DNA of 64,000 nucleotides from Candidatus Hodarchaeota archaeon (GCA_016839815.1 JAEOTM010000032.1:66879-130878), one strand, 5' to 3'. Positions 32,817 through 35,172 are shown, counted from the first letter of the stretch. Numbers and translations are program-made. Notes: generated by a model not told the origin, from the sequence alone.

Positions 32817-33908
32817 TTAATGCTGTTCTTCTTCCTGTTTTTGTTTTAATTTCTTCTTAATGAGCTCTAGCGAGACAAAATTCTGATTAATGTTAAATGA
32901 CATGGCAGGAGATAGATATGTATTCTTAATAGCTTCGATACAAGCGTGAAAATTTTGAGTATACTTCTCTTGCCATCTAATATGATCTTCTACGGTTCTA
33001 AACGTGCTTGTGACAAAATAATTATATCTTCCTAAATTTGCTTTAACTAGAAGAGGAACACGAGGATCTCGTCTGATAAAATTCGCTACCTCAAGACATC
33101 GCTTTTTAATTTCAAATAACGAGAATATTAGCATGCACCCAGGAGGGACAATGGTTAAAGGGAATCGAGAGGTGGGTTTTCCAATTGTTCCAGCTTCTAA
33201 AAGGCTTTGTATCTGTCTGGAAATCGTATTCCTATTAACATCCAGTGTTCGCGCTAAGAAATTCTCATTTGTTCGAATACAATTACCATTTAGAATGAGG
33301 CGTAAGATCCTGATTGTCAGAGAATCTAATTCGAAATCACCTATCGAATTTATGATTCCTTGTTTATACCCACGTTCGATATTTCTGAATGGAGCAAAGG
33401 TGTCGTATTTTAAAATTCGCTTAGTGCTTAAATATAGGACATCAGGAGGGTGTCTATCCTCTTCTTTGATAATCTTTCCGCTATCTAATGCTTCATCACT
33501 CCATATTTGATAGGAGTAAAGATCTTCATGAAATTGAATTGTCACCGTGTTGTATACTTCTTCCTGGAAGACATAAGCAGCAAAAATATGCGGATCATTC
33601 TCAATAAAGGTACGAGTAGTCTGATCCCGGTAGAATTTATCCTTTGAAATCACTAATAACGGATACTCAGAAAAAAGCCACTCTAATGGGTAGACTGGTT
33701 TTTCGATTATCTTATTTTCCAATAGATGATCTAGTCTATCTTTAATTGTGTTTCTATGTTTATTGAGTTTATTTGCTAACGCACTGACATTGAAATCTAC
33801 TCCTTCCCCTGAACATAACAGTAGTAGCAATTTTAGAGTAGACTCTCTCTTCAAAAGGCTTTTCATGGACCTCGTGAGTGAGAAGATATTACCTCTTAAT
33901 AACCTCAT
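32817..33908 (-). CDS. Tandem (double) Lrp/AsnC-like regulator
   Basis: Two HTH+RAM repeats (LANKLNKHRNTI...IIEKP and LARTLDVNRNTI...TIGKP). Confidence 0.8.
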   Translation of the reverse strand: MRLLRGNIFSLTRSMKSLLKRESTLKLLLLLCSGEGVDFNVSALANKLNKHRNTIKDRLDHLLENKIIEKPVYPLEWLFSEYPLLVISKDKFYRDQTTRTFIENDPHIFAAYVFQEEVYNTVTIQFHEDLYSYQIWSDEALDSGKIIKEEDRHPPDVLYLSTKRILKYDTFAPFRNIERGYKQGIINSIGDFELDSLTIRILRLILNGNCIRTNENFLARTLDVNRNTISRQIQSLLEAGTIGKPTSRFPLTIVPPGCMLIFSLFEIKKRCLEVANFIRRDPRVPLLVKANLGRYNYFVTSTFRTVEDHIRWQEKYTQNFHACIEAIKNTYLSPAMSFNINQNFVSLELIKKKLKQKQEEEQH

Positions 33909-33993
33909 TGAGTTCTCAATCTATTTTTGGTAGACTTAGCTGATATTAAACCTAATGAACAATGTGTCAAACTTAAAGGTAGATATCACCATT

Positions 33994-34131
33994 CTAAAAA
34001 GATTTAGATGCTTCTTCTTCTTTGGGATTGGATGGAAAACAGATATGAAAGCAGGTACAATAGTTGCAATTTGGGTAAAAGTCAGCGCAAATTTTTCCTA
34101 TGTGTTCATTTAATTCTGTATGTGTACTCAT
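33994..34131 (-). CDS. Unannotated 45-aa microprotein with an EndoIII/MutY-type C-x6-C-x2-C-x5-C motif
   Basis: Translated by hand: MSTHTELNEHIGKICADFYPNCNYCTCFHICFPSNPKEEEASKSF. SD AAGGAAGGT; TATA at 34246-34253. Confidence 0.65.
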   Translation of the reverse strand: MSTHTELNEHIGKICADFYPNCNYCTCFHICFPSNPKEEEASKSF

Positions 34132-34531
34132 TTTTTTCAAACCTTCCTTTAGTCTTTTTTTTTTGTTGTGCTGTTTAAATTCTTAATGTAGGTGTTTAGA
34201 TTGTTTATTGACTTCTATTAGTCAAATAAATTCTACAGATAAGAATTTATAAAATGAGTGTACATAAAATGCGCTATTTAGTGAGAAATAGATAGATTAT
34301 GTTATAATAAATCAAATACTCTCCATAACTTCAGTAATTCTTAATGTACAATATTATTGTCTAGCTATCTAGCAATTTTTCAGCTGCATTATCAACTGCT
34401 AATTTTCAAAAATAAACATGTTTGATATTTCATGCACGTTTTTTTAGCAGAGAACTTTATCGATTTCAAGCATTATCTATTCTTTAATCAGGATTGGTTT
34501 ATAGAAAAAAAAATGAAAGAACCCTGAAAAC

Positions 34532-34690
34532 CTATGTTTGAAGGTTTTCCAGCGATTCTCTGAGGCATTGTAACTTTTCAATAATATTATCAAGACATTC
34601 TTTAGAATGTTCGACCGTTTCAGCATGGGACATCTCCTTGTGATGCTTTTTCCCATGGTTACCGCATTTACAATCTTTTTTATCAGACAT
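34532..34690 (-). CDS. Unannotated 52-aa Cys/His-rich microprotein with C-terminal amphipathic helix
   Basis: Translated by hand: MSDKKDCKCGNHGKKHHKEMSHAETVEHSKECLDNIIEKLQCLRESLENLQT. SD AAGGTGA; T-tract after the stop. Confidence 0.75.
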   Translation of the reverse strand: MSDKKDCKCGNHGKKHHKEMSHAETVEHSKECLDNIIEKLQCLRESLENLQT

Positions 34691-34776
34691 ACTAGATTTT
34701 CACCTTTACTTTAGATACTGGTTTACTCCATAAAATAAAGTTTATAAGTTACAAACTAAGGAGTAACTTAGTTGCT

Positions 34777-35172
34777 TTGAAGGGAAGTAGTGTGCAGAAA
34801 TCGAAAGAAATTCTCCAAGAATGCTTTCAAGTTGAGATCAATGGTGTCTGTTTAAAGCCGCTGATTAAATATACCGAGTTACTCAGTCGTAAATGGATGC
34901 TATTCACATTGATGCTCTTTCCAGAATCTAACCCTTTGAGATATTCTGAAATTCGCAATCGTTTAAATGGACTCAGCAAGGTCAAGATTAGTGATACAAC
35001 AATGTCTCAGCGTCTGAACGAATTGACTGAAAATAAAATTCTAACGAGAGAAGACTTCCAAGAGATTCCTCCGAGAGTAGAATATCAACTAACAACAAGA
35101 GGCAAAGAATTAAAAATGAGCTTACAACCTTTCATCCAGTGGTCCTTGGATATGTGTCATCAAGAAAACTAG
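34777..35172 (+). CDS. HxlR/DUF24 family wHTH regulator
   Basis: SRKW.L, LRYSEI and QEIPPRVEY.LT..G motifs; N-terminal Cys residues. Confidence 0.92.
   Translation: MKGSSVQKSKEILQECFQVEINGVCLKPLIKYTELLSRKWMLFTLMLFPESNPLRYSEIRNRLNGLSKVKISDTTMSQRLNELTENKILTREDFQEIPPRVEYQLTTRGKELKMSLQPFIQWSLDMCHQEN

Follow-up and report, generated by a model that had tools for sequence, protein, structure and literature searches.

Wbl proteins hold a [4Fe-4S] cluster that is sensitive to O2 and NO, and they act together with transcription factors. The cyanobacterial SmtA/SmtB system pairs a small Cys-rich protein with an adjacent repressor and has an operator in the form of an inverted repeat, and small Cys proteins also modulate transcription in archaea (e.g., Brz of Halobacterium). 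The arrangement C-x2-C-x5-C recurs in WhiB-like proteins, in FNR, and in Cas4/AddB. In the Asgard archaea, gene regulation is almost unexplored; the Hodarchaeales are the archaeal order now placed closest to eukaryotes. With a further cysteine in front, Cys-X6-Cys-X2-Cys-X5-Cys is the [4Fe-4S] motif of endonuclease III (EndoIII) and MutY (PMC11138216), whose cluster loop is abbreviated FCL below.

We analyzed a gene for a 45-amino-acid (aa) protein with this last spacing in DNA from a Candidatus Hodarchaeota archaeon. "The window" refers to the whole stretch of DNA analyzed, which is 64,000 nucleotides (nts) long. The features of the locus, in the order in which they are met by a transcribing polymerase, are as follows.

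34259..34264, minus strand: TGTACA palindrome at the BRE position, 4 nt upstream of the TATA box; found in 11 of 11 promoters (one reads TGTGCA)
34247..34254, minus strand: TATA box TTTTATAA; its TTTT.T columns are invariant in 11 aligned upstream regions
34208..34225, minus strand: palindrome TTGACT-N6-AGTCAA at the expected transcription start; candidate operator or 5' mRNA hairpin
34142..34147, minus strand: Shine-Dalgarno (SD)-like GGAAGG, 10 nt 5' of the ATG; same position in homologues
33994..34131, minus strand: coding sequence of the 45-aa four-cysteine microprotein, TAG stop codon included; evidence from the ORF list, 41 homologues, and dN/dS
34039..34089, minus strand: C-x6-C-x2-C-x5-C loop CADFYPNCNYCTCFHIC, codons 15 to 31; proposed metal or cluster ligands, with the Cys invariant in the family
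32817..33908, minus strand: gene for a 363-aa fused double Lrp/AsnC-type protein, a presumed transcription factor, 85 nt downstream of the microprotein gene; evidence from HTH matches, AF2, Foldseek, and profile

The microprotein gene and its family

The translation of positions 33994-34131 (-) contains KICADFYPNCNYCTCFHICFP, in which the C-x6-C-x2-C-x5-C spacing is exact at C15, C22, C25, and C31. Translated in six frames, the 64-kb window contains this spacing a single time; the mean for 100 shuffles was 0.03. A fifth cysteine, C27, lies within the last spacer (C25 to C31) of the window copy and is not conserved in the 41-sequence alignment discussed below. We take the ATG at 34131 to be the start codon. 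A TTG at 34140, three codons 5' of the ATG, was rejected because it leaves only 1 nt after the SD, and the SD-to-ATG spacing of the homologues agrees with the ATG. In all 13 copies that start with ATG or TTG, GAAGGTG or GGAGG stands 7 to 10 nt before the start codon. An earlier note on this DNA had described a stand-alone ORF with the exact cysteine spacing and with its own SD and TATA box, and all of these are present (GGAAGG at 34147-34142 and TTTTATAA at 34254-34247).

A single-sequence word search of 5.8 billion clusters returned no homologue, nor did it return the window copy itself; it took six-frame and profile searches to bring homologues to light. In 40 related genomes, searched in six frames, there were 16 matches (E, 5e-15 to 6e-5), all of them in one genus and all of them short open frames. 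Among the fetched loci the recurring core is K-I-C-x-D-F-Y/F-P-N-C-x-x-C-x-x-F-x-x-C-F/Y-P, in ORFs of 45 to 76 aa. The profile search yielded 25 small proteins, each annotated as "hypothetical"; three are from Promethearchaeota metagenome-assembled genomes (MAGs), and the others are metagenomic. A filter-free hidden Markov model (HMM) search of 1.84 billion cluster representatives gave 13 clusters, which are 48 to 88 aa long with one exception. That exception, the sole long match (P0032, 299 aa), was considered as a fused or longer form and set aside as a KKCFPNR repeat artefact; therefore, no fused form was found among the 1.84 billion representatives. The microprotein had no match in Pfam, NCBIfam, or PADLOC, and a sequence-profile search of the PDB gave chance matches only (E ≥ 0.48). 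The literature that we searched contained no description of the family.

As aligned, the family comprises 41 small proteins of 45 to 109 aa, of which the window copy is the shortest. Seven positions are invariant (C15, F18, P20, C22, C25, C31, and P33) and five are nearly so (D17, N21, F32, D39, and S42); one member has a longer first Cys spacer. Conservation peaks in the Cys core and is lowest at both termini. Over the 32-codon core, pairwise dN/dS values ranged from 0.04 to 0.5, with synonymous sites near saturation. Taken together, the conserved homologues, the invariant Cys, the SD, and the dN/dS values mean that the ORF is a real, conserved protein-coding gene under purifying selection. 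The earlier note had proposed a search for Asgard homologues with the Cys pattern and would have given up its reading had there been none; homologues exist, and their four Cys are invariant in all 41 sequences. With purifying selection and with its own SD and promoter, the gene encodes a genuine stand-alone microprotein, as that note had suggested.

The distribution of the family is narrow. When 301 genomes from across the phylum (30 families, 70 genera) were searched in six frames with the profile, 10 proved to be carriers, all belonging to one genus. The carrier genomes are MAGs labeled Candidatus Hodarchaeota, Heimdallarchaeota, or Promethearchaeota archaeon, and three single-contig genomes of the same genus gave no significant match. 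Copy number ranges from one in the window's genome to as many as six in another (G007).

Two sets of copies depart from the common pattern. The copy at L029:3401-3565 (G002:C32), which reads CRICAEFFPNCNICSRFQTCFP..., opens right after a stop codon, and no ATG, GTG, or TTG precedes its Cys motif; either the copy is a pseudogene or its start codon is non-canonical. A divergent subfamily (L030:3192-3374, L031:1979-2170, and L032:3132-3237) reads CNICNFF..KCYP and is without the fifth Cys. Its members are located between the genes for an MFS transporter and a UbiA prenyltransferase, with no double-Lrp gene nearby, and their upstream regions have a different conserved sequence with no TGACC palindrome.

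The cysteine loop and its probable cofactor

The microprotein and the FCL (PF10576) have identical Cys spacing, and in both an Ile precedes the first Cys and a Pro occupies loop position 5. The local topology predicted for the microprotein (helix, loop, short helix) is also like that of the FCL. The loops themselves differ, however. At the cluster loop, the Nth proteins of the window's own genome read ICTPTSPKCSQCPIITQC and ICIATTPKCYICPMNTLC, and Nth loops of the same class are basic (KAKKPL and TPTSPK), whereas the residues between the first two Cys of the window microprotein are ADFYPN, an acidic and aromatic loop (DFYPN). Thus, the replacement of the basic loop residues to which the earlier note drew attention is borne out. 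A further difference is that the microprotein is not embedded in an HhH-GPD glycosylase.

Searches for a relationship beyond the spacing were negative. None of the 41 family members matched PF10576 at E ≤ 10 (the model cutoff is 20.5 bits), so the search with the EndoIII [4Fe-4S] model that the earlier note had recommended went against it. Whole-genome scans with PF10576 returned glycosylase-sized frames only (85 to 476 aa, the shortest at contig ends) and no microprotein locus, even in multi-copy genomes. We also built a local FCL HMM from 32 Nth loops of the same class. Microprotein cores scored −4.2 to +4.3 bits against it, with a median of −1.4, and the Nth loops themselves scored 47 to 51 bits; shuffled sequences in which the Cys were held fixed had a median of −2.3 bits, and 41% of them reached the microprotein median. 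The HhH-GPD model (PF00730) matched on three other contigs of the genome and nowhere in the window. The earlier note had named a decayed nth or mutY gene upstream as grounds for refutation; the locus has no HhH-GPD remnant, and the upstream sequence is a conserved promoter.

Because all tests beyond the spacing were negative, the microprotein is not detectably an FCL family member or the remnant of one. Homology to the FCL is not supported, and the likeness would be at most geometric convergence; all that follows from the common spacing is that 17 residues in this arrangement are able to wrap a cubane. Of the EndoIII-type loop claimed in the earlier note, the spacing and the Ile and Pro context stand, but the relationship does not, given that PF10576 has no match and that the HMM scores are those of Cys-fixed shuffles.

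Structure prediction added little. The AF2 model of the microprotein, made from the 41-sequence alignment, is of low confidence (pLDDT, 64) and has a helix at residues 4 to 18, a loop with C22 and C25, a short helix at 27 to 31, and a helix at 36 to 44. Foldseek found nothing in the PDB with this model, a wide VIA-align search gave generic helical fragments only (Z ≤ 3.4), and the ESM Atlas score of 0.84 is uninformative. If the fold depends on a cofactor, a lack of structural matches is expected; the result is thus uninformative either way and is no evidence of a new fold. By sequence, too, nothing beyond the Cys spacing connected the microprotein with an Fe-S family in searches of Pfam, PDB profiles, and the local FCL HMM.

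Four invariant Cys are most economically read as a sign of a metal or Fe-S role, and from their conservation we think it likely that the four bind a single metal center. The microprotein, judged by its sequence, probably holds an iron-sulfur cluster or zinc. If there is a metal center, [4Fe-4S] appears somewhat more likely than Zn(Cys)4, for several reasons: the spacing is a proven cubane-binding geometry (EndoIII and MutY); there is only one CxxC; conserved aromatics and prolines flank the Cys loop (D-F-Y/F-P-N and C-F-P); and the hosts are Fe-S-rich anaerobes. The recurrence of C-x2-C-x5-C in WhiB-like proteins, FNR, and Cas4/AddB argues in the same direction.

Promoter, palindrome, and the neighboring regulator gene

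The upstream regions of 11 copies have a mean column identity of 73%, which is above that of the coding N-termini. Read in order, the conserved blocks are TTTTTGTACA; 4 nt on, TTTTATA; about 22 nt on, (A/T)CCTGACC-N6-GGTCAA; a GTTCTATGAAGAGTA block; and the SD followed by TGAAATAAATG. Promoter and candidate operator are conserved in 12 microprotein copies; the earlier note had noticed neither this conservation and the palindrome nor the confinement of the family to a single genus. The microprotein promoter is the sole exact match to TGTACA-N3-R-TTTTAT in the window, and the composite of TATA box and palindrome is unique in the window's 4.24-Mb assembly. In 164 kb of fetched loci, 12 of the 14 TGACY-N6-RGTCA sites lie at microprotein promoters. 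Positions 33800-34800 matched no family in Rfam.

About 29 nt separate the start of the TATA box from the start of the palindrome, which thus lies where archaeal transcription is expected to begin, in the window near 34224-34228; a protein bound there would block RNA polymerase. In the window the palindrome reads TTGACT-AATAGA-AGTCAA, and both half-sites carry a matching change relative to the TGACC-N6-GGTCA that its relatives have at the same spacing. In the promoter of another copy (L034), an A-to-G change is compatible with a G-U wobble. Because the double change in the window preserves pairing and the change in L034 preserves a wobble pair, the variation fits both a DNA operator and an RNA hairpin. 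We favor an operator on account of the position of the palindrome, the symmetry of the putative regulator, and the degenerate half-sites of the sister promoters described below.

The best candidate for a protein that binds this site is encoded next door. The earlier note had called the neighboring gene a double-Lrp regulator, and the 363-aa gene product, encoded on the same strand as the microprotein, has the fold of a fused double Lrp/AsnC protein. It had 13 Pfam matches at E ≤ 1, all to generic HTH models and with one set per half. The AF2 model (14 sequences; pLDDT, 63) has two winged helix-turn-helix (wHTH) domains, with a beta-alpha-beta-beta-alpha-beta domain after the second: the wHTH at residues 196 to 238 is followed by E259-E332, a RAM-type domain. 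The first half, with the first effector-like domain, was modeled with low confidence. With this model Foldseek found archaeal Lrp/AsnC proteins at an E of ~1e-5 (PH1519, PH0061, ST1022, and a halophilic Lrp) and, over the full length, the fused siroheme decarboxylase NirDL 4ch7 (355 columns; E, 2e-5; TM, 0.44 to 0.50). The sequence profile of the 363-aa family weakly found PH0061 (E, 0.008) and PF0864. Like Lrp/AsnC proteins and NirDL/AhbAB, the protein consists of two copies of a wHTH plus a beta-alpha-beta-beta-alpha-beta domain, here in one chain; it differs from Lrp/AsnC in that neither the Pfam AsnC_trans_reg (PF01037) model nor the NirD-type models match it. The domain architecture and the Foldseek and profile matches together support the double-Lrp identity. 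Because NirDL is among the fold matches, the 363-aa protein is a presumed DNA-binding protein only, and on the model an enzymatic rather than a regulatory role is conceivable.

The recognition helices, KHRNTIK and VNRNTI(I/S)R (HRNT and NRNT), one per half, are conserved across the double-Lrp family. We consider it slightly more probable than otherwise that the palindrome is bound by the double-Lrp protein: the recognition helices in its two winged-helix domains are nearly identical, as expected of a pseudo-dimer on a two-fold symmetric site. AT-centered palindromes of the TTGAC-N-GTCAA type resemble archaeal Lrp boxes.

The two genes are linked in distribution and, in part, in position. Among 41 genomes searched, the double-Lrp gene was limited to the carrier genus, where it is present in 14 of 21 congeners, and every genome with the microprotein also has the double-Lrp gene. 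Fifteen microprotein copies were examined for their neighbors: eight are within about 4 kb of a double-Lrp gene, either adjacent (the window copy, L033, L034, L037, and L038) or near (L025 to L027), and seven are not near one. Four arrangements occur: the microprotein gene can be upstream of the regulator gene (window and L033), downstream of it (L037 and L038), directly divergent from it (L034), or divergent from an operon that ends in it (L025 to L027). Short microproteins (45 to 52 aa) adjoin regulators of Lrp clade I, which are 67 to 77% identical to the regulator in the window, and long microproteins (64 aa) adjoin clade II, at about 41% identity to that regulator.

Other neighbors vary. 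In the window they are genes for an aminotransferase, an HxlR protein, and a nitrilase-type hydrolase; elsewhere, they encode TauE, MFS, Mrp/Mbh-like subunits, a radical SAM protein, and a NifB-like domain protein. In the window, a 52-aa Cys/His-rich ORF (N-terminal CKCGNHGKKHH) at 34532-34690 (-) fills the 650-nt gap that precedes the microprotein promoter. This ORF is divergent from the gene for the HxlR-family regulator at 34777-35172 (+), which matches Pfam HxlR at an E of 3.6e-16.

A promoter of the microprotein type also stands beside the regulator gene with a different small gene after it (L015 and L023). At L015:819-1371 (G002:C58), the promoter has a perfect TGACC-N6-GGTCA and is followed by a 162-aa hydrophobic membrane ORF and no Cys microprotein; the six-frame match of the adjacent double-Lrp gene contains an internal TAA. 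In G008, the promoter precedes a pair of genes for a 64-aa membrane protein and a 65-aa acidic protein. Sister promoters at L027:16704-17447, L035:2205-2947, and L023:18-666 combine TGTACA-TATA with a degenerate palindrome (CGACC or TGATC-N6-GGTCA) and precede a conserved pair of genes for a membrane protein of 64 to 70 aa (MALKNDL...) and an acidic protein of 65 to 79 aa that ends in EEDNENPYL. The gene pair adjoins long microproteins in L027 and L035, and the (A/I)LEQ motif of the acidic protein resembles the tail of the long microproteins. A further sister promoter is at L036:4392 (-). The acidic-protein gene of this membrane-plus-acidic cassette was not matched in the window's genome, which is 89.5% complete. 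The promoter common to these loci marks out a small set of microprotein genes, a regulon that accompanies the double-Lrp gene.

In the window's genome, TTGACY-N6-RGTCAA occurs at one other place only, on contig C119, at the start of an unrelated 165-aa HTH gene. There (L048:1501-1560; G000:C119:8383-8442), the palindromes TTGACCTATTTTGGTCAA and GTTGACTATTTTTTGTCAA lie side by side at the 5' end of the gene, which encodes a C-terminal His/Cys-rich segment (HGHSH ... CTSCEEFVEC). Its product may be an autoregulated metal-sensing factor.

Possible functions and comparison with known systems

The gene itself, the invariance of its Cys, its restriction to one lineage, the conservation of its promoter and palindrome, and its linkage to the double-Lrp gene are directly supported by the data. 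From them we infer a cofactor, a binder of the palindrome, and a physiological role. Our preferred reading, to which we give about an even chance, is that the microprotein is a regulated cytoplasmic four-cysteine metalloprotein, with [4Fe-4S] the favored cofactor, and that it is the output of the neighboring double-Lrp factor. The gene would be translated into a cytoplasmic metalloprotein of 45 aa, the shortest member of a Hodarchaeales family confined to one genus, and the four invariant Cys of its 17-residue loop would hold one metal center, preferably [4Fe-4S]. Transcription would begin from the conserved promoter, where a TGACY-N6-RGTCA palindrome covers the expected start. The fused double-Lrp protein would bind the palindrome, and the microprotein would be its regulated output and possibly also its modulating partner. 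The microprotein would then act as a small redox-, Fe-S-, or metal-responsive module. The redox or iron sensor proposed in the earlier note is likewise a hypothesis.

Several other functions can be weighed against the same evidence. The microprotein could be a buffer or chaperone for zinc or another metal, its gene repressed by the neighboring winged-helix factor according to the logic of SmtA/SmtB. A wHTH protein encoded next door and a palindrome where transcription is expected to start would suit such a protein, as would the four invariant Cys and the presence of up to six copies per genome, some of which adjoin TauE or MFS transporters. Nevertheless, we consider this function unlikely. Four or five Cys allow one metal ion only and so make a poor buffer; the single CxxC pair is unlike zinc ribbons or knuckles, and the hosts are anaerobes rich in Fe-S proteins. 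Moreover, the regulator belongs to no known metal-sensing family (ArsR/SmtB, CsoR, or MerR), and the Pfam matches of this neighbor are to generic HTH models.

A minimal ferredoxin-like carrier, or an Fe-S assembly or delivery factor for membrane redox complexes such as an Mrp/Mbh-type hydrogenase, is distinctly unlikely. It is suggested by the long-tailed copies, which come immediately after operons encoding Mrp/complex-I antiporter-like subunits and have genes for a NifB/MrpORP-like domain protein and a radical SAM protein nearby. But the window copy has no such neighbors, the 20 kb examined in G007 contain no promoter of the microprotein type ahead of the Mrp/Mbh-like operon, and the only consistent partner of the microprotein is the double-Lrp gene.

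The short, Cys-rich character of the peptide, its tandem copies in L027, and a 315-aa radical SAM gene beside four long-tailed copies could point to the precursor of a radical-SAM-modified Cys-rich RiPP of the ranthipeptide/SCIFF type. We judge this very improbable because no radical SAM, peptidase, or exporter gene is near the window copy, and because elsewhere the radical SAM gene is convergent (L037 and L038), with no SPASM/twitch domain detected and no NCBIfam maturase cutoff reached. In addition, conservation peaks in the Cys core and is least at the termini, whereas such a precursor would have a conserved leader and a variable core, and the microprotein genes have their own strong SD sites and operator-type promoters.

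A toxin-antitoxin reading was also dropped, because the partner is a double Lrp of 363 aa and nothing toxin-like was found in fold or family. Finally, the FCL-identical spacing with its Ile and Pro and a few weak tblastn matches of the microprotein onto genuine Nth loops (E, 0.04 to 0.55) might suggest a chance ORF or the decayed C terminus of an nth/mutY glycosylase gene, but this has next to no chance of being right and is already refuted by the 41 conserved homologues under purifying selection, by the conserved promoter and SD directly upstream, and by the lack of both an HhH-GPD signal at the locus and FCL similarity beyond the fixed Cys.

Small proteins are routinely missed in annotation, and this family is a well-supported, lineage-specific example. 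If our preferred reading is right and the loop binds [4Fe-4S], then a 17-residue cluster loop can stand alone as a protein and is a minimal natural Fe-S scaffold, and the locus would be a candidate redox-sensing circuit in Asgard archaea. If zinc is bound instead, the loop would have a new ligand geometry among archaeal zinc microproteins. Either way, regulator, operator, and microprotein make up a compact system that is tractable in vitro.

How the microprotein compares with other small-protein systems can be stated briefly. Zinc-ribbon and CPxCG microproteins have two CxxC knuckles, whereas the microprotein has one CxxC (C22-x2-C25), with the other ligands at −7 and +6. The locus resembles SmtA/SmtB and Brz in having a gene for a small Cys-rich protein beside a winged-helix regulator gene and an inverted repeat at the promoter; it differs from them in that the microprotein has four or five Cys and no His ligands and in that the regulator is not of the ArsR family.

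The likeness to WhiB-like proteins is of another sort. Each is a small protein that is confined to one lineage, occurs in several copies, and has four invariant Cys, the last three of them spaced C-x2-C-x5-C. Between the first two Cys there are 6 residues in the microprotein but 14 or more in Wbl proteins, and the microprotein is half the size, comes from another domain of life, and would have an Lrp-type partner, not a sigma factor. No family member matches the Pfam WhiB model (PF02467), and the sequences have no GxWGG (the G[V/I]WGG turn) and no basic tail. Nonetheless, if the microprotein works with the double-Lrp protein, WhiB-like proteins would be the best functional analogy, one of logic and not of ancestry. 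Taken to its limit, the analogy would make the stand-alone minimal [4Fe-4S] loop protein an O2-, NO-, or redox-sensitive partner of the double-Lrp protein, that is, an independently invented archaeal counterpart of WhiB that controls a small microprotein regulon via TGACC-N6-GGTCA. We think this rather unlikely; were it true, the microprotein, at 45 aa, would be among the smallest natural [4Fe-4S] proteins. The protein family is new, but its kind is familiar: a small, Cys-rich, probably metal-binding protein connected with a transcription factor.
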